Source of the DNA: Eledone cirrhosa
Taxonomy: Eukaryota
DNA length: 64,000 nt
Direction of reading: 5' to 3'
Assembly: GCA_964016885.1 (NCBI GenBank)
Contig: OZ024749.1
Coordinates: 6,944,001-7,008,000, forward strand
A program made the position numbers and the translations under genes. Below the pieces are notes generated by a model. The model was given only the letters and a program-made list of their open reading frames with translations. It searched no databases and was not told the origin of the DNA. Below, piece after piece: positions 96 through 61,134 of this stretch. Each line of letters begins with the position of its first letter. Position 1 is the stretch's first letter.

Positions 96-172
96 TTATA
101 TATATATACATATATATATACATAAATAGTAAAATAGAAAATTTCACTCTAAATGGCTGATTACAATAAATG

Positions 173-469
173 TAATCTGAGTTTTTCGAATATTAATAAT
201 AACATTCGATTCGTTTGCAATTATGCAACAGTCACTGTGTATTTTTGAAAATAGCATATATTTTCACTAGCTCTGACAGTTTGGGAGGAGAACAGTGAGC
301 TGTACTGATGAAGGGTGATACCCAGAAACATTAGTGTCTGCAGTTCTGTTCGCATGCCAACATAAGAGCAAATATGAAGTGTTCATTCTACTGACATGGC
401 TATAAAATTTAGGCTTGTTTGCAAAATTGCAAACGAATCGAATGATATTAATATTCGAAAAATTCAGAT

Positions 470-471
<2 letters not shown>
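173..471. repeat. Inverted repeat (~50 bp arms) enclosing the hammerhead motif
   Basis: taatctgagtttttcgaatattaat...cgtttgcaatt (173-222) is the reverse complement of aattgcaaacgaatcg...aattcagatta (~428-471); element flanked by (TA)n. Confidence 0.85.
290..351 (+). ncRNA. Putative type I hammerhead ribozyme motif (Penelope-like/retrozyme-type)
   Basis: gagctgta-CTGATGA(305-311)-aGGGTgatACCCa-GAAAC(325)-attagt-GTC(336-338)-tgcagttc; stem I pairs with two G-U, stem III is ACA/TGT. Confidence 0.65.
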
Positions 472-498
<27 letters not shown>

Positions 499-8611: not shown

Positions 8612-11043
8612 TCATCATCATCATCATCATCAGGTTTAGCGTCCGTGTTCCACGCTTGCATGGGTTTGGACGGGGGTTTTCCCACTTGAGGCAAGAGTGG
8701 TTGTCTTGCTCGCATAGGACTGTCTGGCGGGTTTTCTACAGTTGGATGCCCTTCCTAACACCAACCACATTTACAGTGTGGGGCTGGGAGGTTTTTACCG
8801 TGTTGCCTACACGGCCACATTACAGCGTGGACTGTCTGGCGGGTTTTCTACAGCTGGATGCCCTTCCTAACACCAACCACATTTACAGTGTGGGGCTGGG
8901 AGGTTTTTACCGTGTTGCCTACACGGCCACATTTACAGCGTGGACTGTGTGTTTTTTGTCGTGACACCTACACGATCTCATTTGTTTCGGCCTGGATGTT
9001 GTGGGACCAACATAACTTTACATTGAAAGGGGCGGTGTGGGTGGGGTGGAGGTGGTGGGACGGGGGTGTGTTTTGATAGAGATGCCTACTGACTGTAGTA
9101 GGTTTTTACTTTGTATTTAGGTAAGGCGGGTCTTCTCTATTACTGAGTACCGCCAAAGGTCTCGGTCCAGTGACATTGTCTTGGAGAGGTGTAAGCGTGT
9201 GAGGTCGGAATTTATCAGCTCGTCCCATGTTTTTCTGGGTCTGCCTACTCCGTGGCTACCGTCTATCTTTATTGCCCTGCACTTCGTTATACAGCTGTCG
9301 TCTTTCATGCGCATCACGTGACCGTACCAACGTAGCCTTCTCTCGAGTAAACAACATCTGATCCCTCTTATTTCTAATTTTTTCCTTAGTTCGTTTATGC
9401 TTTGCCGTTCACGTATATTACTATTGCACATCCAGCGGAGCATGCAAGCTTCGTTCCTCTCTAGTCTGCGTATATCCTCTGCACACAATGCCCAGGTCTC
9501 ACTGCCATGCAGCATTGCTGTTCGTATGCAGGCATCGTATAACCTGCCTTTCATTTTTAGGGAGAACCCTCTAGCGGCTAATAGTGGTATAAGCTCTCTG
9601 AACTTTTTCCATCCAGTTCTGACTCTAGCTACTGTACTTTCAGAGCACCCTCCCCCACTGCTGATTTTGTCACCCAGATAACGGAAGCTGTCCACTATTT
9701 CTATAGACCCCTCTGCGCAGTTGAAGGAGCTAGTATTTTGTGGGCACTTGCTGCTACTTATTGCACCAGAGCACCGGCCACATGTAAAATCTATGTTCTT
9801 AGTTAGCTTACCTGTGATCCCACTACATCTTTTATGCACCCATACTTTGCATTTGGGACATAAAATGGAGTTTCTACCTACGCCTTTCCTACACACTGAG
9901 CATGGCCATTTCCCCGATGGGACCGCCGCCTTATTTTCTTTCCTACAAACTAGAACTTTAGTCTTAGCCAGGTTAATTTTAAGGCCTTTTGATTCTAGGC
10001 CGTGCTTCCACGTTTGGAATTTCTTCTCTAGTTCGGTCATTGATTCAGCTATGAGCGTTAGATCATCTGCGTATAGGAGTTCCCATGGGCAGCCGGTCTT
10101 GAACTCCTCTGTTATAGCCTGGAGGGCAATAATAAATAGTAGGGGGCTAAGAACAGAGCCCTGATGGACACCAACTTTTACGCTAAACTCTTCACTATAT
10201 TCGTTGTTAATTCTAACCTTACTGACTATTTCTTTATACATGGCTTGTATAGCTCTCACAAGCCATTCGTCAACACCTAGTTTTCTAAGAGACCACCAGA
10301 TAATGGAACGGGGGACTCTGTCGAAGGCTTTCTCCAAGTCGACGAAAGCTAAGTATAGGGGTTTACTTTTAGCTAGGTACTTCTCCTGTAGTTGTCGTAC
10401 AATGAAAAGAGCGTCTGTGGTACTTTTGCCTGACACAAACCCGAACTGCATTTCATCTAGATCAATTCTCTCTCTGATTAGTTGCGCTATTACTTTTTCC
10501 GTGACCTTCATGACCTGGTCGATTAATTTAATGCCTCTATAGTTACTCTTATCTAGGGCATCTCCTTTTCCCTTATAGCAGTTAACGATGATGCTGCTAT
10601 GCCATTCCTTCGGAACAACCCCATTCTGTACGACTTGGTTAACTATCCGGGTGACCATGGTGTGTCCCACCGAACCAGATGCCTTCAGCATCTCAGCAAC
10701 TATTTCCGAAGGCCCAGCCGCCTTACCCGTCTTCATATCTTTGATTGCCTTACTTATTATACTACCTTCAACTAACACTGCTGGTCCCTCTATTGGATCG
10801 ATCTGGGGGAGACTGTCTTTCTCCCATTTGTTCTCCTCATTTAGAAGCCTTTCGTAGTGACACTTCCAAGCTACCTTCTTATCAGCGTCGGTGATGGCAA
10901 GTATGCCATCATCGTTAAGTACACACTTCTCCCCGACAATATCACGGTTTTCCTTGACACATTGCCTGGCAATCCTGAACACCTCACGTTGTAGAACATG
11001 CTTGAACTTTCTTTCCTCTGCTTCCCTTCTTGCGAAGTACACT
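8608..11043 (-). mobile_element. RTE-clade LINE, 5'-truncated, uninterrupted RT ORF (9117-~11040) with PHD-like insert
   Basis: [60 protein letters not shown]; (GAT)n tail; ~112-bp tandem duplication in the 3'UTR; both ends abut (TA)n. Confidence 0.97.
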
Positions 11044-11149
11044 ATATATATGTATATATAACACATATATATATATATATATATGTATATAAATATGTAT
11101 GTGTGTATATGTATATATATATGTATATAAATATGTATGTGTATATATG

Positions 11150-11184
<35 letters not shown>

Positions 11185-11215
11185 ATATAAATATGTATGT
11201 GTGTGTATATATATA

Positions 11216-13240
11216 GATTACTAAATAAGGAGAATGCATGGGAAGAAGAGACCCTACCCCAAGTAGACCCTATAGAGGGGCCAGCAGTACAAGTCAGCAG
11301 CAACGTAGTAAGTAAGGCAATCAAAGATATGAAGATGGGGAAGGCAACCGGTCCATCGGGTATAGCTGCCGAGATGCTGAAGGCATCTGGGTCTGTAGGT
11401 CACACTATAACCACACGTATTGTTAACCAGGTAATACTAGAAGGTGTCATACCAAAAGATTGGTGCAGTAGCATCATTGTCAACTGCTACAAAGGTAAAG
11501 GCGATGCACTAGATAGAGGAAACTATAGAGGTATAAAGTTGATGGACCAGGTCATGAAAGTAACAGAAAGAGTTATAGCACAGCTGATTAGGGACCGGGT
11601 GAAAATAGACGAGATGCAATTTGGGTTTGTACCAGGAAGAGGCACCACTGATGCCCTCTTCCTTGTGAGGCAGTTACAGGAAAAGTACCCAGCTAAAAGT
11701 AAGCCACTCTACTAGGCATTTGTCGACCTTGAGAAAGCCTTTGACAGAGTTCCACGTACTGTAATCTGGTGGGCTCTTAGAAAACTAGGAGTAGATGAAT
11801 GGCTTGTGAAAGCAGTACAAGCCATGTATCGGGGAGCAGTCAGCAAAGTTAGGATTAGCAATGAGTATAGCGAGGAATTTAGCGTACAGGTTGGGGTCCA
11901 CCAGAGCTCTGTTCTTAGCCCCCTCCTGTTCATCATAGTCCTGCAGGCAATAACGGAGGAATTTAAGACCGGATGCCCATGGGAACTCCTGTATGCTGAT
12001 GACCTCGCACTCATAGCTGAATCTATGGTAGAACTAGAGAATAAATTCCAAACTTGGAAGCAGGGACTAGAAAGAAAGGGTCTCAAAGTCAACATGACAA
12101 AGACTAAGGTCCTTGTAAGTAGACGAGAAAACAGAACCCAGATCCCCTCAGGGAAATGGCCTTGCTCGGTATGTACGAAAAGTGTAGGTAGGAACTCCAT
12201 TCTCTGCCCCAAATGCAAACAATGGGTACACAAGAGATGTAGCGGGATCTCAGGAAGCTTAATTAAGAATGTAGGCTTCACATGCAGCAGCTGTGCTGGG
12301 ACAGCAAGCAGCAAACAGCCACAGGAAACAAGTACCACCAATCTCTGGGAGGGCTCTGTAGAAACAGTAGACAGCTTCTGCTACCTAGGTGACCGAATTA
12401 GCAGTGGAGGTGGGTGTTCAGAAAGTACAATAACTAGGATAAGTAAGGGATGAAAGAAGTTTAGGGAACTACTACCACTGCTAGCTGCAAAAGGCTTCTC
12501 CCTCAGAATGAAAAGCAGACTGTATGATGCGTGTATCCGAACAGCAATGTTGCATGGTAGTGAGACCTGGGCGCTGAAGGTGGAAGACTTACGTAGATTA
12601 GAGAGAAATGAAGCCTGCATGCTCCGATGGATGTGTAACAGTAATATACGTGAATGACAAAGCATAAATGAATTGAGAGAGAGACTGAGCATAAGAGGAA
12701 TCAAATGCTGTTTGCAGGAGAGGCGGTTGCGCTGGTATGGACATGTGATGTGTATGAAGGATGACAGCTGCACTAGAAGTTGATAGAAACCGCGGAGTGG
12801 GGAGACCCAAGATGACCTGGGATGAGGTGATAAAAGCCGACCTTACCCAATTACACCTCTCAAAGGCAATGACACACGACCGTGACCTCTGGCGTCATGC
12901 AGTAATACAGAGTACCCGACCTCCCATGGGTACATGCTGAAGCATATAAACAATATGCCCCCACACCCCCCACTGCAAGGTGGTCGTGGAGGTGCCACGG
13001 CAAAAAAGCACCCAGCCCACACTGTAAAGTGGACGTGTAGGCACCACGAAAAAGCACCCAGCACTCACTGTAAATGAGGTTGGTGTTAGGAAGGGCATCC
13101 AGCTGTAGAAATCAAGCCAAATCAGTTCCTGTATGAGCAAGGCATGGTCAGCCGACCAGACACAACAGGACAACCCGTCTAACCCATGCTAGCGTGGAAG
13201 AACGGACGTAAAACAGCGATGATGATGATGATGATGATGA
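11216..13240 (+). mobile_element. RTE-clade LINE (second subfamily), 5'-truncated, with stops
   Basis: Same RT motifs in ORFs 11197-11715 and 11806-12453; in-frame stops at ~11713, ~12451, ~12655; (GAT)n tail. Confidence 0.96.
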
Positions 13241-14100: not shown

Positions 14101-14859
14101 AAATATAGGATTTTGTTGTTTATATTAAGTCATACACTTAGTTATTCTTGTTGTTGTTGTAGTTTATATTTTCCTCCGCTGTGACCCGTCTGTTTATTTC
14201 TTACTGCTTCCACTCTCTCTGTATCTCACTTTCTTTTTACCCCCTCTGCCAGTCACTCTCTCCGTTAGCCTCTTCCTCACACTTTCACTCACTCACTCTC
14301 TGCTACTTCCTCTCCATCACTTCCTCCCGTTTGACCCGTGTAAAATTCTTTCTTTCTCGCTCACATTTCAACCAGGTTGGATGGTCTTTATCTCTCGTCT
14401 ACGATTTCACAGAACTTATGTTCACTGATTTCAGGAACTTGACTCCTTCTTCCTCACTTTTCATTGCATTACCATCTTTGTTTGTTTACTGTCTCGCTCG
14501 TTTCCCCTATTTACGTGTCCCAACGACTTTCTTTAGCCGTTGTTCGCACCAACCAGAGGTATATGATCTTTAAAACGATGAAATACCAATGAAGGCTGGA
14601 AGATCACTGATGAAGGACTAATTTTATTCATATGTAACCCATTTGCAACCACGCAGCATGCCATTTTTTATATATATATATATTGTAGAATTTTTTCAGA
14701 ATGTTTTTGACTGCTGTTTCCTGTAAAGAGACATTCGTCTCATTCTGACATCACCAGCCATGTGTGTTTATTTTTATAATTCCGTACGAGGTGAACTAGC
14801 CTGCTTTTAAATTCCATTTTTGGCATATTTTGGCAGTGACTTAGGGTTATCGTGTTTGA

Positions 14860-14940
14860 GCTCTACTGAGGAACGATTCCAACCATGACCATCCCCACTG
14901 AAAAGTTTCATGAAATAGTCTTTTTAAGACTATATAGAGC
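14860..14940 (+). ncRNA. Putative type I hammerhead motif
   Basis: gctcta-CTGAGGA(14866)-...-GAAA(14912)TAGTCTT ttt AAGACT-ATA-tagagc; perfect 6-bp stem I and 8-bp stem III, stem II decayed. Confidence 0.6.
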
Positions 14941-15275
14941 ATTTGTAGTTTTTCAAAATTGAAGGATGAGTATTTAAGCTTTATTTTATTCAGAGTTAAG
15001 ACTCTATTGATTTTTTCCCTGGATTTCACAAAATCTGTGGATAAAATCTCTGTCTCGATTTTTTTTTTTAATTGAGTTTGAATTATTTTCCCATATCTTA
15101 CGTTAATTATTTTCCATTTTGACGTTATAATCACTTATATATTATGAAATACTGTTGGCTTCTTACTCACAATAATTTCTATATTTTCATTTTTATATAT
15201 ATATATGGGGCGGTGCCCCAGCATGGGCTCAGCCGGATGGCTGGAACAGATAAAAGAGTAAAAGAGTATATACAT

Positions 15276-17999: not shown

Positions 18000-18004
<5 letters not shown>

Positions 18005-18081
18005 AATGTAGAAATGGCTTCTGATGATTTGCTCTGAATGAAACAGTTCTAGTTCTGTAGAAGCCATTTCTATATTAAATT
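18000..18081 (+). ncRNA. Putative hammerhead-like motif with ~22-bp stem I
   Basis: aatttaatgtagaaatggctt-CTGATGA-tttgctctgaat-GAAACAG ttctagtt CTGTA-gaagccatttctatattaaatt; register is 1 nt off canonical. Confidence 0.6.
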
Positions 18082-18158
18082 CAATGTTTACACTCTACTA
18101 ATGTATTGAGTACCTTACTTACTGTAGTTACCCCCAATTGAACCTAGGACCCTAGCTT

Positions 18159-20116: not shown

Positions 20117-20572
20117 ATCATCATCATCATCATCATCATCATCACCGTTTTACAGCCATTCTTCCATGCTAACATGGGTTAGACGGGTTGTCCTGTTGTG
20201 GGCAGTGTCTGGTTGGCTGACCTTGTCTTGCTCATACAGGAACTGATTCTGGCTTGATTTCTACAGCTGGATGCTCTTCCTAACACCAACCTCATTTACA
20301 GTGAGTGCTAGGTGCTTTTTTATCCATGGCGCCTACACGTCCACTTTACAGTGTGGCCTGGGTGCTTTTATTTTTTTGCTGTGGCACCTCCACGACCACT
20401 TTGGAGTGGAATGATAGGGACCCCAGCCCCTATCATCTCATTTCTACAGCTGAGTAAACTGGAGCAATGTGAAATAAAGTGTCTTGCTCAAGGAAACAAC
20501 ACATCACCTGGTCCGAGAATTGAACTCACAACCGTTCGATTGCAAGCCGAATGCTCTAACCACTAAGCCATG
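20117..20572 (-). mobile_element. SINE family A with longer RTE-type tail
   Basis: Head at 20440-20572, tail like 13000-13240, (CAT)n on plus strand. Confidence 0.88.
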
Positions 20573-22936: not shown

Positions 22937-25366
22937 AACTTTGAACTTTGAAATGTTTTGGCCAGTATTGGCCCAGGCCATGTCTAACTTAATAGCACCA
23001 CCTGGCGAAGTCTTTCAATTCAGGATTTGGGCACCATGGCCCATTCGAGAAGAGAATTACTGTTTGCGGAGACATATCCGGGTGTGGGTGGTTTGTCCGG
23101 GATTACTTGGAGGAATTTGTCCAAAGACTTCTTGAATTTTGTGTGGTCAGTTTCTGTTTTGACGTGTCCTGGTGTGATGTTGAAGAGAGCAGGGCCGATT
23201 GAGGTGAAATAATTGTGCCGTATTGTTGTTATGAGTTGCGATTTAGATTTTTGAATGGGACGGATAGCACGGGGCCCAAGCCTTGGGTGTATCTTGAAGG
23301 CGATGCCAACATCATTTGGGCAGTGATGATGGAACATTTTCCACATCATGCAGATAATATAACGCTCACGGCGACGTTGGAGTGAGTAAAGTTTCAGGTT
23401 TTCCAATCGACCCCAGTAGTCAAGGTCTGACATGCCATCTATCTTTTTCGTGATTGCCCTTTGAGGAGCTTCAAGTTTCATGATACTTTGTTTCGTGTGG
23501 GGAGACCACAGTGGACAACAGTATTCAAGGTGTGGTCGGGCGAAAGTAGAGAAGAGAAGGATAATGGTGCGGGAATCTCTCGACTGGAAGGTTCTGAGGA
23601 TCCAGGAACACATTCTGCGGGCCATGTCAACTTTGCTGCTTATATGCGTGGTCCAGCTTATGTTGCTGTCCACGGTTACTCCCAAGTCTCTGATGTTGTT
23701 TGATGCCACGAGAGTTTCCCCGGAGGGAAGGGAGTACGGGAGTTTCAGAGCATCCTCTTTTCCAAAGTGGATCAGTTCGAATTTGTCTTCGTTCAGTAAC
23801 ATGTTGTTCTTTTCTGCCCATTGGGTAACAGCCAGTAGGTCTGACTGAAGGCTTATCCGGTCATCCACGCCATTGATGACCTTTTGGAGCTTGGAATCAT
23901 CAGCGAAAATTTTAATGTTGCTGTGTTTGATGATGTCAGTGATGTCATTAATATAGATGATGAAGAGAAGTGGGCCCAACACAGTGCCTTGTGGGACTCC
24001 ACTACTGACTTTGGCTGGGCTTGATTTGACTCCCTCAACTACAACATGTTGGGTTCTGTTTGACAGGAAGCTCTTGATCCACTGCAGCAGCTTTCCAGTG
24101 ACACCAATATTGGACAGCTTTCTCAGTAGAATGTTATGATCAACCCTGTCAAAGGCCTTGCTGAAATCAAGGTAGATAACATCAGTGTTGGAACCCTCTC
24201 CCAAGGCTCTCAAAATGTCATCAAAGTGATGCAGTAGTTGCGTCAGGCAATCCCTTCCATTACGGAATCCATGCTGGTTGGAGTTCAGCATATTGTTACT
24301 CTCAAGGAAGTGGGTCATTCGCGATCTCACCACTCGCTCAAATACCTTAATGATATGAGAGGTGAGTGAGATTGGACGGTAATTCACGGCAAGGGATTTG
24401 TTTCCCTTTTTGAAAACTGGGACAACAGACTGGGATAGAAGGTTTTCTGGCACATATCCAGCATCCAGTGAGTTCCGCCACAGATTGGCAAGAGGAGAAG
24501 CAAGTTGGTGTTGACACGCCTTCAAGACACAAGCAGGGAACCTATCGGGACCTACTGCTGAATTATGCTTGATTTCCTTTATTGCCGCCAAGACATCAGG
24601 GGCGCCAAACGTTATGTCCGATAAGGTGTAATGGGGAGTAACATCGCCGATACAGCCCAGATCGGCCATATCAGGATTGCTGAAAACAGAGCAGTATTGT
24701 TTCTGCAGTATCTCACCCATGGTTTTAGCATTGTCTTGAAGAGTGCCATTTTCATCAATTAGAGGGCCAACAGTAGAGCCAGTGATTTTGTGTTTTTTTG
24801 CAAATGAAAAGAACACTTTGGGATTGAGTTTGATCTTCTCAATGGCCCAGGCCTCTTCAGCTCTTCTCTGATTGTTGATGAGGGACATTATGTTGTTTTG
24901 GAGGTTATGTTTTTTAATCTCTAGTGATGAAATGGCAGTCAAGTTGATGTGTTGCTGCTGACAGTATTTCAGATTGTTGATTTTTTTGTTCGTTCTCTTA
25001 ATTTTTCTGATGAGCGTTTTTCTATTTCTAGGGATTCTGCTCTTAGATTTGTTTATAGTTCTTAATGGGGTGTGTTTAGCACATATGTTTGTAACAGTGT
25101 CCACAAATGTCTGCCAGGACTTTTTGATGTTAGTGGGTGTATGAGTGTGCGTGAAGGACCAGTCGACATGTGCAAGATCATGACTGATCGCTTCCCAGTT
25201 TGCATTGTGGAAATCCATAGCGTCAAACGGATGGACAGGAGAAATGACATTGGGTTTGTATATTGGACGGTGGAATCTCAGATCACAGAGAACCATGTCA
25301 TGATCAGAGAGTAGAGTTTTCTCCACTGCAATATTGTGGATATTGTCAGTGTGATTGCTGAAAATT
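22937..25366 (-). mobile_element. CR1/L2-group LINE, 5'-truncated, intact ORF2 remainder (23020-~25366)
   Basis: APE C-terminal LSDHDMV; [43 protein letters not shown]; tail TTCAAAGTTCAAAG; no stops. Confidence 0.96.
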
Positions 25367-26690: not shown

Positions 26691-27298
26691 GGTGGCTGCC
26701 AACTCGTTTTCGAGTACGGCCACTACTTTATATCCATGTAGGAGAACTCCTACCGATGCGCTGAACGAGTGTGACTTTATTAGTCCAGCCAGCGACTTGA
26801 AAACTCTGGTACTAACACTACACTTGTGACAATTATTGACACATAGTACTGGGCCCATGGTACCATGTGATGACAAGTGCAGAGAGATCTCCAGATATAA
26901 AGCAAAGCCTGTGCCGTGAAGCTTTTATAGTGAGCAAAGGCACTGCACAAAGCCAGTCCCACTCTCTTAACCGAGATGATATTTACCAAAAAGAAGAAAA
27001 AGTCAACATCATTGGATACCATCAGGGTTGCAGGTGTTATATCAGAGTTTTCCTTCTCCTAGAATTCTGCCTTGACAAAAGCTAAGGGGTCATCTCTCCT
27101 GGTGATTTTGGATGGCCATTGACTCTTAAGAGCTCCTTTGCCCTTTGACAGGTTTTGTTTTTAGTCCTGCAGGATGTCCAAAGTCACCCTCCTCACCAAG
27201 AAACCTTGGTGGGGTTGCTAGTTTAGTCTCCAACGATCCGACCATGAGACAGGTTGTACTGGGATACATGTTACCAGTAGCACCAACTGGTGACCTGA
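26691..27298 (-). mobile_element. Non-autonomous retroposon (RTE 5'UTR-like), colinear copy
   Basis: Homologous to 18223-18730; flanked by (TA)n; another fragment at 63975-64000. Confidence 0.8.
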
Positions 27299-27324
27299 TA
27301 TATATATACATATATATACACCTG

Positions 27325-27369
<45 letters not shown>

Positions 27370-27486
27370 CATATATATATATACATATATATATACATAT
27401 ATATATACACATATATATATACATATATATATACATATATATATACATATATATATATACATATATATATACATATATATATATAC

Positions 27487-27519
<33 letters not shown>

Positions 27520-27522
27520 CAT

Positions 27523-29700
27523 AAGAGAATAAATAAGGAGAATAAATGGGAGAAAGACAGTCTCCCCCATATCGACCCAATAGAGGGACCAGCAGTGTTA
27601 GTCGAGGGGAGTATAATAAGTAAGGCAATCAAGGATATGAAGACGGGTAAGGCGGCTGGGCCTTCGGAAATAGTTGCTGAGATGCTGAAGGCATCTGGCA
27701 CGGTGGGACACACCATGGTCACCCTCATAGTTAACCAAGTCGTACAGAATGGGGTTGTTCCGAAGGACTGGCATAGCAGCATCATCGTTAACTGTTATAA
27801 GGGTAAAGGAGACGCCCTAGATAGGAGTAACTATAGAGGCATTAAATTAATCGATCAGGTCATGAAGGTCACGGAAAAAGTAATAGCGCAACTAATCACA
27901 GAGAGAATTGACCTAGATGAAATGCAGTTCAGGTTTGTGTCAGGCAAAAGTACCACAGACGCTCTTTTCATAGTACGACAACTACAGGAGAAGTACCTAG
28001 CTAAAGGTAAACCCCTCTACTTAGCTTTTGTCGACTTGGAGAAAGCCTTCGACAGAGTCCCCCGCTCCATTATCTGGTGGGCTCTTAGAAAACTAGGCGT
28101 TGACGAATGGCTTGTGAGGGCTATACAAGCCATGTATAAAGAAACAGTCAGCAAGGTTAGAATTAACAACGAATATAGTGAAGAGTTTAGCGTAAAAGTT
28201 GGCGTCCATCAGGGCTCTGTTCTCAGCCCCCTACTATTTATTATTGCCCTTCAGGCTATAACAGAGGAGTTCAAGACAGGCTGCCCATGGGAACTCCTAT
28301 ACGCAGACGACCTGACACTCATAGCGGAATCAATGGCCGAGCTAGAGAAGAAATTCCAAACATGGAAGCACGGCCTAGAGTCAAAAGGACTTAAAATTAA
28401 CCTGGCTAAGACCAAAGTTCTAGTTTGTAGGAAAGAAAACAAGGCGGCGGTCCCTTCTGGGAAATAGTCGTGCTCGGTGTGTAGGAAAGGCGTAGGTAGA
28501 AACTCCATTTTATGTCCTAAATGCAAAGTATGGGTGCATAAAAGATGTAGTGGGATCACAGGTAAGCTAACTAAGAACATAGATTTTACATGTGGCCGGT
28601 GTTCTGGTGCAATAAGTAGCAGCAAGTGCCCACAAAATACTAGCTCTTTCAATTGCGCAGAGGGTTCTATAGAAATAGTGGACAGCTTCCGTTACCTGGG
28701 CGATAAAATCAGCAGTGGGGGAGGGTGCTCTGAAAGTACAGTAGCTAGAGTCAGAACTGGTTGGAAAAAGTTCAGAGAGCTTATACCACTATTAGCTGCT
28801 AAAGGGTTCTCCCTCAAAATGAAAGGCAGGTTGTACGATGCCTGCATACGAACAGCAATGTTGCATGGCAGTGAGACCTGGGCATTGTGTGCAGAGGATA
28901 TACGCAGACAAGAGAGGAACGAAGCTTGCATGCTCCGCTGGATGTGTAACAGTAATATACGTGAACGGCAAAGCATAAACGAACTAAGGAAAAAATTAGA
29001 GATAAGAGGGATCAGATGTTGTTTACTCGAGAGAAGGCTACGTTGATATGGACACGTGATGCGCATGAAAGTCGATAGCTGTATAACAAAGTGCAGGGCA
29101 ATAAAGATAGACGGTATCCACGGAATAGGCAGACCTAGAAAAACCTGGGACGAGCTGATAAACTCCGACCTCACACACTTACACCTCTCCAAGACAATGT
29201 CACTGGACCGAGACCTTTGGCGGTACTCAGTAACAGAGAAGACCCGCCTTACCACCGAGACCTTTGGCGGTACTCAGTAACAGAGAAGACCCACCTTACC
29301 TAAATATATAGTAAAACCTACTCCAGCCAGTAGGCATCTCTAACAAAATACACCCCGTCCCACCACCACCACCCCCACCCCATCCACACCACCCCGTTCT
29401 ATGTAAAGTTATGTTGGTGCCGCACCATCGAGGCCGAAACAAATGAGATCGTGTAGGTGTCACGACAAAAAACCCGCCAGACAGTCCACGCTGTAATGTG
29501 GCCGTGTAGGCAACACGGTAAAAACCTCCCAGACCCACATTGTAAATGTGGTTGGTGTTAGGAAGGGCATCCAACTGTAGAAAACCTGCCAGACAGTCCT
29601 ATGCGAGCAAGACAATCACTCTTGCCTCAAGTGGGACTACCCCCGTCCAAACCCATGCAAGCGTGGAACACGGACGTTAGAGGTTGATGATGATGATGAT
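27523..29700 (+). mobile_element. RTE-clade LINE (same subfamily as 8608-11043), 5'-truncated
   Basis: Near-identical protein; Trp-to-stop at 28465 and 29044; ~45-bp duplication at 29209-29300; (GAT)n tail. Confidence 0.97.
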
Positions 29701-48689: not shown

Positions 48690-51600
48690 ATCATCATCAT
48701 CATCTTACGTCTGCTTTTCCTTGCTTGCAAGGGTTAGACGGGTCCTATTCAGCACAGCGTCTCTCCACTTGTCACGGTCCTTCGTCCTCTCCTCAGTGAG
48801 TTTCAGCGATCTGAGGTCTGCTCTCACCACTTCTGGCCATGTTTTTCTGCGTCTTCCTTCTACCAGGATTTCTTAGCACTTCTTTACCCAGCGGGCATCA
48901 CGTCCATACCATCTCAGCCTTCTCTCCTGCACACCACAATGGAGCATACTTGCTTCATTTCTCTCCAGCCGTTGCATATCTTCTGCAGTTGCTGGCCATA
49001 TCTCACTACCATGCAGCATCGCACATCTCACACAGGCATCATATAACCGTCCTTTCGTATGCAGAGAGAAACACTTCTTTGTCAACAGAGGAAGCAGCTC
49101 CCTAAACTTCTTCCAACCCGTCCTTATTCTAGATACTATGTCCTCGGAGCACCCCCCTCCCATGCTAATCTGATCACCTCGGTACCGGAAGCTATCAACC
49201 ACTTCTATAGAACCCACCTGCATTGGAAAAATGTGTCTATCACTGCGATTACTACTAGCAACTTCCTGTACATCTACTGTATACATAGTTTTCCCTACCT
49301 GTTAGTTTGCCTGCTATCCCACTACATCTCTTGTCTACCCAAGATCTGCATTGCGTACATTTTATGGAATTTATGCCAGTTCCTTTCCTACATATTGAAC
49401 ATGGCCATTTCCCCGATGGAATCAGAGTATTGTCCTCTCTTCTACTTATCAACACTTTTGTTTTAGCTATGTTCACTCTCAGGTCTCTTGATTCCAACTG
49501 CTGTTTCCATAGCCAGAATTTATTCTCTAGCTCCTCTACTGATTCTGCTATAAGAACCAGATCATCAGCATAGAGAAGTTCCCATGGACAGCCAGTCTTA
49601 AACTCCTCTGTTATGGCTTGGAGGATTAAAATGAACAAGAGCAGGCTGAGGACCGAACCCTGATGTACACCTACTTGTATCTGGAATTCCTCACTAAACT
49701 CCATTCCTATTCTCACTTTACTGACAGCACCCCTGTACATAGCTTGCACTGTTCTCACAAGCCATTCCTCTACACCTAGTTTTCTTAGGGACCACCAGAT
49801 GACAGATTGGGGTACCCTATCAAAGGCCTTCTCTAGGTAAAAAAAAGCTAAGTATAGTGGCTTATTCTTCTCCAAGAACCTCTCTTGTAGTTGCCTCACT
49901 AAGAAGAGGGCATCTGTTGTACTTTTCTGAGGCACAAAACCGATCTGCATCTCATCTAGTTTGACCCTTTCTCTAATCAGTTGCGCTAATAGTCTCTCTG
50001 CTACTTTCATAACCTGATCCATCAGCTTTATGCCCCTATAATTGCTCCTCTCTAGAGCATCCCCTTTACCTTTGTAGCAATTTATGAGAATACTGGTGCA
50101 CCAGTCTTTGGGTATGACACCACCATATATAGCTTGATTAATGATGCGTGCAACTAGTTTAGTGCCTACTTCTGATGCCTTCAGCATCTCAGCAACTATC
50201 CCCGACGGTCCAGCAGCCTTACTATTCTTCATTTCCTTAATTGCCTCTTGTACCCTATATTCGTCATCTTAATAGCTGGTCCCTCTGTCGGGTCAACTGG
50301 GGTAATTTCTTTCTGTCCCATTCGTTCTCCACATTCATCAGTCTCTCATAATGACATTTCCAGGCCTCCTTTTTTTGATGATTCGTGACACTAAGTACAC
50401 CGGCATCATTCCGGACACAATTATCTCCAACAACATCCTGATTTGTATTGACACACTGCCTTGCAATGCGGAACACCGCACGTCTCTGATCTTCCCATCA
50501 CAGAAATTTGGCAAATCTCCTACTCTCAGCCTCAGCTGCTAAGTACACTATACGTCTAGCTTCTCTCTTAGTGGCTGTGTATCCCTCTCTACTCCCACTG
50601 TTTTTCCAAGCCTTCCATGCCAGTCTTTTGTCTCTAATGGCCATATCTACCGTGCTGTTCCACCACCAGGTTACTCTCTATCTGGTTGAAGCTCTGCCCC
50701 AACCACAAATTTCTTCAGTAGCCTGCAGTAAGTTGTCATGTAAGAAATTCTAGTTATCATCTGTCATACAACTCTAAATCGTCTTCTTTTTCGTCATATA
50801 CATCTTGAAGGGCTTTGCTAAATTTATATTTTAATGAAAGGTCTTTTAGCTTCCAGACCTTTCTTTTCCACACCTTCCTGTATGTCTCATTCTTCCTCTT
50901 TCTTACTGAGATGTCACTAACGACTAACCTATGCTGTGGGGCACATTCTTCCCCGGGGTATGACTTAGTATTTGACACCATCTGTCTGTCTCACTGTCTA
51001 ACTAGCAGGAAGTCAATCTGGCTTATGTGCTCGCCTGATTTGTAGGTTATTAGGTGATTGGTAGGCTTCTGGAAGTTAGTGTTGCAAATGGTTAGTGCAT
51101 TTGCATCACAAAATTCAAGAAGCCTCACTCCTTCATTTCTTGAACCGTAACCGTGCCCACCATGTACACCAGTATATCCATGCTGGAGCTGTCCAACATA
51201 TCCATTGAAGTCCCCTGCTAGCATAACGATGTCTCTATCCTCTGTCATTGAGGCTGTTTGTAAAAGTTGCTCGTAAAAGCAGTCTTTCTCTTTACCTAGG
51301 CCTGCCTAGGGAGCATAGGCAGAAATGATTGTCAGTAGTTTCCTGCCTACAACTAATCTAAGCTAAATTATTCTATCACTAACTTTACCTCTATTGTCTT
51401 ATTGATCCATCTCTCAGCCAGTAATATGCCCACCCCACCTAAACCATCATCATTACCCACCCAGAAAAGCTTATAACTACGATCTTGCCTGCGATTAGTC
51501 TTGCACACAGCACACATCCACATGCCTTCTGTCCAGCATCTCCGCTATCTCACCAGATCTACCTGTTAGAGTGCCAACATTAAGTGTGGCAACTCTGAGA

Positions 51601-52267: not shown

Positions 52268-54650
52268 GATTTCATTTATTAGCCACAAGGGCCGACATGT
52301 AGGGGTCAATACAAAGACAGGCACAGTGGGTGTTTACAATAAGGTCGAGTAAAAGTGCACAATGGCAAGACTAATTTAACAATGAAAATATAAAAATATA
52401 ATATAAACTATGCATAAATATAACAAAATAAATTCCCCGATAGGGGGTGGACAACCCTGGGGTGATTCGGGTACCCCACCAATCCTGAACCACCCTGCGC
52501 TTCTAGGGTACCCAGGGAGAGCACCCCTCTCCTCAAGTTAGCCAGCCTATAGGTGCATGGTCAGAGTAGGCCCATTCACACGAGCCATTCTCGCCACATT
52601 CACCCACCTTTTAGCAAATGTACTGGGGGGAAGCACTTCTCTCTCCACCCTCACCCTCTTTTCCAGGTGAAACTTGAAGAAGTTGATGAGGGATTGGCCG
52701 AACAGAAAAGTGTCTGTCTTTAGTCCTTTCAACCTGGTCCACCATATAATCTCTTTCGCAACTGCCACCAGACAGAGGAAAATGTCCTGCTCTTCCTGAC
52801 CTAAGGAAGGTGGTGGCTCGATCTTCACTATGGACTCGGCCGATAGCCGGATTCGTCCCACACGCGACAGTAGCTGTTCGACATAACTCCACAAGTCAGT
52901 AATTCACAGACATTGGACAAGTGCGTGCAGAATGGTTTTGTCGTTCTGTGCGCATCTTGGGCAGGTCCGTCTGACAGCACTTCCGTGCCTGTAGAGTTTA
53001 TCCCAAACCGGCAGTGCCACCCGGTAGCACTGCCAAGCGAGGGATTTCTGGAAATTGTCCATCGTCCCCGGCTCAAAAGTCCTCCAGTACAGACTGGTCA
53101 GTTCGACTTCGTCGAGGCCCAAAGCTTCTCCGAGTGCGTCATCGCACTTGCCCACCACTAATCCTCTATAGAACTCGAGAGTGGAAGTTCCACTGATCGC
53201 ATTGCCCGCTTGGTAGAGGGAAGTGAGTGCCTGGCAACATTCCAGGTGCCAGTCACCCAGTCTCGGTCTCTTCTTGACCCAGGACTGCAGCTCAGTCAAA
53301 GAAATGAGCTGCAGAAGGTCCCGTCTGATAAACGGCGACCACACCTGTTCACCATTGAGGCAGAATATCTGGAGATGTCACAGCCTCAACGCATGTCTGC
53401 GCATCACTAGCCACGGCATGCCCAGCCCTCCGTGTAGAGGGTGCTGGCAGCAGATGGACCGCCTCACCAACGGAACTTGTCCCCTCCACAAGAATTTGAA
53501 GAGGAGCCGTTCCAACTTGGCGAGGCGCGGACGGGGGCAAGGCACGATGGTTAGGCGGTAGTAGATGACGGACGCGATGTACGCATTCGCCACCTCCGTG
53601 CGACCTTTCAGTGATAGCTTCCTCCCAGCCCATTTTTGGGTGAGACTGGCTACTCTGCTCGTTACCTCATCCCAATTCTTTTCCACCTGGAGGTCTGGTC
53701 CGAACCAAACCCCGAGCAACTTTACCGGTCCATCCGTCCAGCGCCCCACGACGCTGTCTGACGGCATGGGCTTGCCTCTCCGGGTTCCGAGCTGCAAGCC
53801 CACCGACTTTTCCGGGTTAAGTTTAGCTCCTGTCAACCTTTCATATTCCTTCAGTAAGGTGCCGACCACCTCGATTTCTGAGGTGTTCGACACCATCACG
53901 GTGATGTCGTCTGCATAAGCCGACACCGCCTTTCCACGTCCCGGTTCGAGCGGGATGCCCTGCAACAGCTTCAGCTTCCGCAGTAAAGGCTCGCGAGTCA
54001 ATACGTACAGAAAGGAAGAGAGAGGGCACCCTTGACGGACCAATCGGGAGAGCCGAAATGGTTCCGAGAGGTGGCCATTAACGTTGACCACCGAGCGTGT
54101 GCCGCTGTGCATTGCAACGATCCAGCTTCTAAAGACAGGGCCGAAGCCAGCTGCTTTAAGGACAAACTCCAGATACCAATGGTTGACCCTATCGAATGCT
54201 TTCGATTGATCTAAATTGATCAGTGCCCCACCGAAACCAGGTTTACACCCTACCCTCTCTATGATGTATCACATGAGGTGGAGATTGTCGTGTATGGACC
54301 TGGCTGGGATTGCGCAAGTTTGCGCCTCCCCAACCAAATCCTCGACGACAAGCACCAATCTCTTTGATAACACCTTGGCCAAAATCTTAAACTCTGTGTT
54401 GAGCAGAGTTATGGGCCTGAAGTTGTCTAATGTATCCCTCTTGTTCTCGTCTTTCCTTATCAGCATCACCACTCCCCTGCTCACAGAACTGGGAATACTC
54501 CCATTCTGCTGCCAGTTGCAGTAGAGTGCTTCGAGGAGTTCGGAGAACAAGTCTGGCATATTTATGTAAAGCTCGTAGGGCAGGCCATCCAAACCGGGTG
54601 ACTTGCGCCTCATGCAGCCGACAAGGGCGTCCTGAATTCGGCTGAAGTAA
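52268..54650 (-). mobile_element. L1/Tx1-group LINE, 5'-truncated, frameshifted
   Basis: KSPGLDGLPYELY, FRPITLLNTEFKILAK, VRQGCPLS, SAYADDIT, GGLGMP, CPRC...H...C; 3' AATAAA then (ATT)n. Confidence 0.93.
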
Positions 54651-54654
54651 CCAA

Positions 54655-54843
54655 TAATAATTGTTTCTACGTTAGGCACAAGGCCAGCAATTACCCAGTG
54701 CATTACTGGTACTTTATTCTATCGACCCCGTAAGAATGAAAGGCAAAGTTAACCTCGGCGGGATTTGAACTCAGAATGGCAAGGGCCGTAACTCTCTACG
54801 TCAAAGCATGGCGTCCAACCCTCTACCAATACTGCCAATCCAT
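54655..54843 (-). mobile_element. SINE family B
   Basis: ttggtagag A box, gagttcaaatcc B box, cctttcattcttacggggtcgatagaataaagtaccag. Confidence 0.88.
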
Positions 54844-54939
54844 CATTATTAATAATAATAATAATAATAATAATCCTTGGCCTCATTGAATTTTGAATTA
54901 TATATATAACAAAGATTAACAAGGATTTTAATTGAAACA

Positions 54940-55020
54940 TTCAATTAATTTACAACCATTTCATTGGTCTGACAAGAATATTCCATTCCTGTTAGAGTAA
55001 CTCTTCAGAATCTATCAATT
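54940..55020 (-). ncRNA. Decayed hammerhead-like motif
   Basis: Minus strand gatagatt-CTGAAGA-long imperfect stem II-GAAAT ggtt GTA-aattaatt. Confidence 0.4.
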
Positions 55021-55173
55021 TCAAATAAATAAATATCTTACATGTTCAAGAATTCCCATGGTGTGGACTATAAGATGACATTCAGCTTAACAAATTTTCT
55101 TTGTCTCTATATGGTTGTATTATCAACTTATTTAAACTATATATATATAGTTTAAATAAGTTAATACAACCAT

Positions 55174-59685: not shown

Positions 59686-60976
59686 TCATCATCATCATCA
59701 TCAACGTTTAACGTCCGTGTTCCACGCTTGCATGGGTTTGGACGGGGGTAGTCCCACTTGAGGCAAGAGTGATTGTCTTGCTCGCATAGGACTGTCTGGC
59801 AGGTTTTCTACAGTTGGATGCCCTTCCTAACACCAACCACATTTACAGTGTGGGTCTGGGAGGTTTTTACCGTGTTGCCTACACGGCCACATTACAGCGT
59901 GGACTGTGTGTTTTTTTGTCGTGACACCTACACGATCTCATTTGTTTCGGCCCGGATGGCGCGGCACCAACATAACTTTACATAGGACGGGGTGGTGTGG
60001 ATGGGGTGGGGGTGGTGGTGGTGGGACGGGGTGTATTTTGTTAGAGATGCCTACTGGCAAGGCGGGTCTTCTCTGTTACTGAGTACCGCCAAAGGTCTCG
60101 GTCCAGTGACATTGTCTTGGAGAGGTGTAAGTGTGTGAGGTCGGAGTTTATCAGCTCGTCTCAGGTTTTTCTAGGTCTGCCTATTCCGTGGCTACCGTCT
60201 ATCTTTATTGCCCTGCACTTTGTTATACAGCTATCGACTTTCATGCGCATCACGTGTCCATACCAACGTAGCCTTCTCTCGAGTAAACAACATCTGATCC
60301 CTCTTATCTCTAATTTTTTCCTTAGTTCGTTTATGCTTTGCCGTTCACGTATATTACTGTTACACATCCAGCGGAGCATGCAAGCTTCGTTCCTCTCTAG
60401 TCTGCGTATATCCTCTGCACACAATGCCCAGGTCTCACTGCCATGCAACATTGCTGTTCGTATGCAGGCATCGTACAACCTGCCTTTCATTTTTAGGGAG
60501 AACCCTTTAGCAGCTAATAGTGGTATAAGCTCTCTGAACTTTTTCCAACCAGTTCTGACTCTAGCTACAGTACTTTCAGAGCACCCTCCCCCACTGCTGA
60601 TTTTATCGCCCAGGTAACGGAAGCTGTTCACTATTTCTATAGAACCCTCTGCGCAATTGAAAGAGCTAGTATTGTGTGGGCACTTGCTGCTACTTATTGC
60701 ACCAGAACACCGGCCACATGTAAAATCTATGTTCTTAGTTAGCTTACCTGTGATCCCACTACATCTTTTATGCACCCATACTTTGCATTTAGGACACAAA
60801 ATGGAGTTTCTACCTACGCCTTTCCTACACACCGAGCACGACCATTTCCCAGAAGGGACCGCCGCCTTGTTTTCTTTCCTACAAACTAGAACTTTGGTCT
60901 TAGCCAGGTTAATTTTAAGTCCTTTTGACTCTAGGCCGTGCTTCCATGTTTGGAATTTCTTCTCTAGCTCGGCCAT
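59683..60976 (-). mobile_element. RTE LINE (subfamily of 27523-29700), heavily 5'-truncated
   Basis: ORF 60161-60976 nearly identical; (CAT)n tail on plus strand; (TA)n on both sides. Confidence 0.96.
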
Positions 60977-61009
<33 letters not shown>

Positions 61010-61134
61010 TATATATATATATGTTATATTCTGTATATCATGTGTTATATGCTATATATATATATGTTACATATTATTTGTTATATATATATATATATGT
61101 TATATTCTATATACTATATATTATGTGTTACATG

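Follow-up and report, generated by a model that had tools for sequence, protein, structure and literature searches.

How did a short non-coding sequence enclosing a hammerhead ribozyme motif come to lie, folded back on itself, between two (TA)n tracts in the genome of Eledone cirrhosa? The locus lies near the start of a window of 64,000 nucleotides (assembly GCA_964016885.1, contig OZ024749.1, positions 6,944,001 to 7,008,000, forward strand), to which the window coordinates below refer; the host genome measures 3.0 Gb and is rich in microsatellites. A sequence-only reading had described it as a ~350-bp unit with ~50-bp inverted arms and a type I hammerhead, pointing to the minimal hammerheads known from Penelope-like elements (PLEs) and retrozymes, and had assigned it to a sequence-diverse class of non-autonomous retroelements that target (TA)n.

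The motif is borne out by the sequence, by a descriptor match and by shuffling controls. A complete type I hammerhead motif spans 290–351 on the + strand, with its core formed by CTGATGA (305–311), GAAA (325–328) and GTC (336–338), and the predicted cut lies 3' of C338. Stem I pairs 290–304 with 339–351 through 6 + 6 bp on either side of a 3 × 1 internal loop, stem II pairs 313–315 with 321–323 and carries a 5-nt loop 2, and stem III pairs 328–330 with 335–337 through 3 bp. Our own type I descriptor found two matches in the whole window, one at 305 (+) with 15 paired bases (8 + 4 + 3 bp) and one at 55008 (−) with 9, while 200 block-wise dinucleotide shuffles of the window gave two matches in total (mean 0.01, best 10 bp). 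The 3-bp stem III together with full stems I and II makes this a canonical hammerhead of the retrozyme type rather than one of the minimal PLE type. The search by established models was silent, Rfam reporting no hammerhead here at the gathering threshold, nor at E ≤ 10 on 100–500.

The elements CUGANGA, GAAA and NUH are present in order along with helices I, II and III, but the 10.1–11.1 base pair that closes helix II in a type I hammerhead is replaced by an A312·A324 mismatch. Most family copies share the A·A: among aligned segments, 93 of 103 and 106 of 109 have A at the two positions, in a sample where exact cores are over-represented. For a mismatched base of stem II there is a retrozyme precedent in axolotl HHR_Amex2, with U·U (PMC7229834). 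For the isolated motif, the minimum-energy fold is predicted to be inactive and lies 6.8–7.7 kcal/mol below the active fold. The stem III region is, moreover, self-complementary at 328–337 (+), where a 10-bp self-duplex of −8.8 kcal/mol was calculated and 2.7% of 1000 shuffles were as good; self-complementarity of helix III is the arrangement that permits dimeric hammerheads (PMC4209133), and this duplex could supply the extended helix of such a dimer.

The surroundings of the motif required a different description from the one first given. TRF places (TA)n tracts at 98–128 and 470–501, confirming the claimed flanks on both sides. Between them, positions 132–228 hold an inverted copy (− strand) of a monomer 3' end (monomer 341–437; 93% identity by BLAST to a natural monomer from locus L022), followed at 229–471 by a 5'-truncated monomer in sense orientation (monomer 151–396; 96% to the same monomer). 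The inverted arms are real (173–228 against 419–471, 89% identity, with a folding z of −9.5 for 120–480), but the hairpin is not the unit, which is instead a tandem monomer of 437 nt. The left arm is 97 nt long and only ~55 nt of it pair with the right end. The sense segment stops at the upstream of two preferred 3' ends, and the ~34-nt 'tail' between these ends stands at the left end only (132–165, − strand). To judge from these alignments, the window copy is a 5'-truncated monomer joined to an inverted copy of the monomer 3' end; taken singly, it is an ordinary dead insertion. The position of the ribozyme at the apex of a hairpin is incidental, because the fold-back arises from the insertion. 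An inverted-repeat search over the whole window was swamped by (TA)n.

In loci L004, L014 and L030, 437-nt monomers follow one another head to tail, and each unit carries one hammerhead. The exact 44-nt core pattern has at least 760 matches in the genome (its reversed control has none), and spacings of 437, 437 and 438 nt occur among the first 100 matches listed; a search with window 120–475 gave 2,396 candidates, of which 40 were scored. The same 437-nt back-joint occurs in contigs of a public sequencing run, the contigs of the three public runs consulted being of unrecorded kind and showing family presence and the tandem joint only. The monomer has 38% GC, its longest sense frame is 47 codons (antisense 133, or 83 from Met), and as a circle it folds at a z of −10.1, a value reached by 0 of 100 shuffles. 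No LTR layout was seen in the loci mapped. Copies are ~89% identical to one another, which leaves the check on stem covariation nothing to count and makes it uninformative: the copies are too similar, and C273 alone among the stem pairs has a common variant. The core is not more conserved than the remainder (0.93–0.98 against 0.92–0.95 elsewhere).

These properties agree with those of the metazoan non-LTR retrozymes of Cervera and de la Peña (2020; PMC7229834), described there as tandem units of 150–450 bp with one canonical type I hammerhead each, low in GC, non-coding, highly self-paired as RNA and dispersed in thousands of copies; 437 nt is near the top of this size range. By every feature tested, the repeat, known here from DNA alone, is a non-LTR retrozyme. 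The family is new, while the class has already been published. Our literature search, with subscription papers, Repbase, repeat libraries and supplements outside its coverage, returned no paper that deals with the 437-nt family or with cut-site junctions. In contrast to the retrozymes of PMC7229834, the sampled members of the family are mostly dispersed partial monomers and dimers, and they display 5' inversions and a PLE-like tail, whereas the words 'inverted' and 'truncated' are absent from the main text of that paper.

As a separate observation, nine of 60 loci (L011, L012, L013, L018, L043, L047, L051, L055 and L058; six recognized by pattern and three by eye) are interrupted within the same AT-rich 20-nt stretch, monomer 366–386 (about window 440–460), by a short repeat that we take to be a tRNA-like SINE. 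Because the same SINE adjoins (TAA)n at window 54650–54840, the AT-rich stretch likely mimics its target.

How members of the family insert was examined in 27 loci, which remain of the 30 that the core-pattern search gave first once three duplicates are dropped; the mapping bridged gaps of up to 260 nt, so that in two loci adjacent insertions may have been fused. Sixteen of the 27 begin with an inverted segment, and 10 cross a tandem joint. Their 3' ends concentrate at monomer 395–411 (18 loci) and 425–437 (6 loci), with 3 elsewhere, so that 24 of 27 use one of two preferred ends ~34 nt apart, and in 11 of the 16 inverted loci the 34-nt tail is found at exactly one end. Arm length varies, with junction-side ends ranging from monomer 1 to 389, and 11 loci have no inverted arm. 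A (TA)n tract adjoins the element on the right in 19 loci and on the left in 13, compared with 626 of 5400 random windows (11.6%). Target-site duplications are unreadable because the flanks are (TA)n. Sequence variants are shared within a locus at 163 of 211 positions in inverted segments and 77 of 102 in tandem segments, against 54% between different loci, as expected if one template served each insertion.

Partial tandems, an inverted 5' copy, a tail of 30–40 bp and a bias toward microsatellites are the hallmarks of PLE insertion (PMC8557442), in which the tail length matches the spacing of two internal RT start sites, and both target strands are nicked and extended (PMC11167929). All four hallmarks are seen in the 437-nt family, which inserts like a PLE; the earlier view of a non-autonomous, hammerhead-bearing, (TA)n-targeting and PLE-like element is thus upheld by the locus mapping and the flanks. 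Endonuclease-bearing PLEs (Craig et al. 2021, PMC8557442; Frangieh et al. 2024, PMC11167929) share with it the partial tandems, the inverted 5'-truncated copy, the one-ended tail, the microsatellite targets and a hammerhead near the 3' end, and non-autonomous head-to-tail forms comparable to the tandem family are described for Chlamys (MRC1). The differences lie in the absence of an ORF, in the canonical rather than minimal hammerhead and in the lack of a sequence link to the PLE family tested.

We therefore regard the window copy as probably a truncated, 5'-inverted copy of a non-LTR retrozyme, likely placed into (TA)n by a PLE protein acting in trans. The observed part of this explanation comprises the monomer, the tandem joints, the two preferred 3' ends, the inversions and the (TA)n flanks. 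The remaining steps can be sketched as follows. Self-cleavage of multimeric transcripts would, in view of the A·A mismatch, probably be weak or take place in dimers, and the RNA may be circularized. The PLE protein would nick both strands of a (TA)n target and begin cDNA synthesis at two internal sites separated by 34 nt, each strand giving one product; head-to-head joining of the two cDNAs would then yield a fold-back of which a single end bears the tail. A minority of copies would likely derive from cleaved RNA and end at the cut. The window copy spans the cut intact, which implies a template of uncleaved or re-ligated RNA, and most other copies, being intact there as well, would have the same origin.

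Evidence on the cleavage step comes from broken copies. Two loci, L033 and L034, stop at the predicted cut, which prompted a genome-wide count of breakpoints with a pattern that put a 20-nt anchor after one free letter and three letters required to mismatch. The pattern matched 50 times at the cut and 7, 11 and 24 times at control positions (monomer 256, 238 and 273, respectively). In L001–L030, the anchors alone matched 21 times at the cut and 17, 21 and 25 times at the controls in the same order. All breakpoint matches were checked except seven of nine look-alike one-base deletions at 273, which were counted as deletions after two had been checked. True junction loci numbered 41 at the cut against 6, 6 and 14 at 256, 238 and 273 (p 2e-4 versus the highest control). 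However, an equally probable account holds that the pile-up comes from the CTGCAG palindrome and local pausing rather than from ribozyme cleavage, since 21 of the 41 cut junctions are self fold-backs at this palindrome. When such fold-backs and junctions with three or more bases of arm microhomology are excluded, 19 clean junctions remain at the cut against 6, 5 and 14 at 256, 238 and 273; this excess has a p of 0.006 versus the pooled controls (25 over three sites) and of 0.24 versus the highest control. The palindrome account also gains from the family at 18021 (family B), where there is no excess at the cut (80 matches, with 20 of 30 checked being junctions, versus 94 control matches, with 26 of 30), and from the anole PLE, for which hammerhead cleavage is dispensable in vitro and no reads ended at the cut (PMC11167929). 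In favor of cleavage, counts are low at each of the two upstream controls, and the anchor of the 256 control includes the palindrome. In addition, L136, L143 and L159 join the flank or an 8-nt inverted stub of the tail straight to the first post-cut base, and the short inverted fillers, which are not arm-templated, fit cDNA that ends at the cut. That a minority of templates was cleaved is thus about an even bet, on a breakpoint trace that is suggestive and unreplicated.

The identity of the mobilizer was approached from a PLE-like coding fragment that adjoins the element in L022. A genome search with this fragment gave 35,935 candidates, of which 150 were scored, and eight loci were taken for their long frames. 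All eight contain RT/endonuclease ORFs of 822–830 codons, seven of them 96–98% identical, together with terminal repeats, inversions and (TA)n ends. From the RT motif YRDD, a Cys linker and GIY-YIG at the C-terminal end, we take the 830-codon ORF to be that of a PLE; the protein had no match in the copy of Pfam searched, the PDB sequence search named nothing, and its 56 homologues are unnamed, many of them marked PF26215. The monomer has no DNA similarity to the terminal repeats of this intact family (8 loci), the best match of 23 nt (E 0.002) lying outside the element, and beyond two juxtapositions it shares no terminal sequence with 30 loci carrying PLE fragments. An ORF combining RT and GIY-YIG is linked to the monomer neither in the unit nor among the PLE loci examined, so the search for a parent PLE in these 8 intact and 30 fragment loci found none. 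The 830-codon protein is accordingly a candidate mobilizer, no more, and other PLE families are present in the genome (L113). The more specific scenario, in which a PLE without shared terminal sequence mobilizes the retrozyme in trans, the A·A hammerhead underwent germline cleavage, and templates included cleaved RNA as well as intact or circular RNA, is tentative and falls somewhat short of an even chance. Counted against the preferred explanation as a whole were the dissimilarity of the intact PLE family tested, the silence of Rfam, the greater predicted stability of the inactive fold, the modest clean excess at the cut and its absence in family B, the unreadable target-site duplications and a PLE label drawn from sequence motifs and unnamed homologues for a protein without a Pfam match.

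The intact PLE-like loci (L092–L099, e.g., G000:C3:343568000-343577500) make up a young family: the ORFs have 830 codons, the 3' region is long, and the ends consist of (TA)n. The hammerhead core pattern had no match in their terminal repeats; in the related loci L068 and L084, a hammerhead core lies upstream of the RT region.

Among the competing explanations for the element itself, the strongest makes the 437-nt unit the pseudo-LTR of an autonomous PLE, the copies being heavily 5'-truncated insertions of it. The insertion layout from locus mapping is indeed the PLE layout (PMC8557442), Xenopus retrozymes match PLE terminal repeats (bioRxiv 10.64898/2026.07.22.740005), and PLE coding fragments adjoin the element in L022 and surround it in L069. 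However, the fragment in L022 lies downstream of the tail and the element in L069 interrupts the ORF (these being the two PLE neighborhoods examined); the end of another monomer precedes the start of the monomer in 10 of 27 loci, and the motif is canonical, not minimal. This explanation is therefore unlikely. Far less probable still is mobilization by a LINE, whether RTE-like or one of the other RTs abundant in the window, with inversions produced by twin priming. LINE-type RT ORF remnants are frequent in the window, and 5' inversion of L1 through twin priming is known (PMC2837659), but the family has no poly(A) or simple-repeat tail of its own, reads through head to tail, and has two fixed internal ends that are separated by ~34 nt, the tail being confined to one end; in twin priming it is the upstream part that becomes inverted, whereas the inverted copies here have monomer 3' ends at both outer ends. 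A fold-back DNA transposon (MITE), with terminal inverted repeats around a chance or captured hammerhead, can draw on the ~55-bp inverted arms and TA flanks of the window copy alone and is ruled out by arms that vary in length or, in 11 of 27 loci, are missing, and by the tandem unit.

The preferred explanation, a retrozyme mobilized by a PLE protein, bears on a question raised in previous work. PLEs have been called a 'strong candidate' for mobilizing animal retrozymes (PMC7229834), and the mechanism is described as 'to be elucidated' (bioRxiv 10.64898/2026.07.22.740005). The latter study, by Li, Clavereau and Pollet, makes the same proposal, that retrozymes are non-autonomous PLE derivatives, with intact PLEs co-occurring; its evidence consists of co-occurrence and terminal-repeat phylogeny across 35 vertebrate, insect and coral genomes, whereas the evidence here is the structure of the insertions. 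Only one of nine elements tested there cleaved in vitro, which calls for caution in the present case. What the family adds is structural evidence for PLE mobilization of a retrozyme, along with a cleavage trace that is suggestive but unreplicated. Since the family offers thousands of copies, tails and inversions in the style of PLEs, and measurable breakpoints, the mobilizer and the role of cleavage become testable from genome sequence alone. Broken copies may record the position at which the RNA was cut, and if both trans mobilization and cut-site junctions hold true, the genome would preserve the life cycle of the retrozyme as a fossil record.

The sites near 14860, 18000 and 54940, suggested as related elements, each belong to a separate multi-copy hammerhead family; the window copies at 14866 and 18021 fail the descriptor and are decayed or rearranged. 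Searches gave 4,141 candidates for the family at 14866, 1,894 for that at 18021 and 408 for that at 55008 (−), 40 being scored for each, and copies of all three families carry full type I motifs. The proposed sequence diversity of the class was also upheld, since many unrelated type I motifs occur in ~651 kb of fetched loci; more than 10 such families were noted there, several of which close helix II with A·A or U·U. The family at window 14685–15200 has an AUA cut site, a long loop 2, a helix III of 6–7 bp and partial tandems, with helix II broken in the window copy. In that at 18001–18146, helix II has U·U at its base and the tandem unit measures 186 nt (L105), and in the window copy an inverted arm meets the core via helix I complementarity. 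The family at 54905–55160 (−) is older (~80% identity); its helix III is nearly palindromic, and it too has inverted arms.

Two near-perfect palindromes, each from a multi-copy family, stand beside (TA)n at 500–725 and 1205–1400, and each contains GAAA, helix III and NUH in what resembles the 3' half of a hammerhead. The family at 1205–1400 occurs in ~30 fetched loci, mostly as fold-backs, and the upstream half of the core was absent from the copies inspected. LINE-type RT remnants are located at window 9117–12453, 23020–25300, 27130–29046, 49255–50268, 52904–54718 and 60161–61051, and two copies of one LINE family point toward one another, forming inverted arms of 1 kb (9752–10759 and 11306–12313). 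Finally, a weak tRNA match of 33.8 bits at 20513–20570 (−) is likely the head of a SINE.
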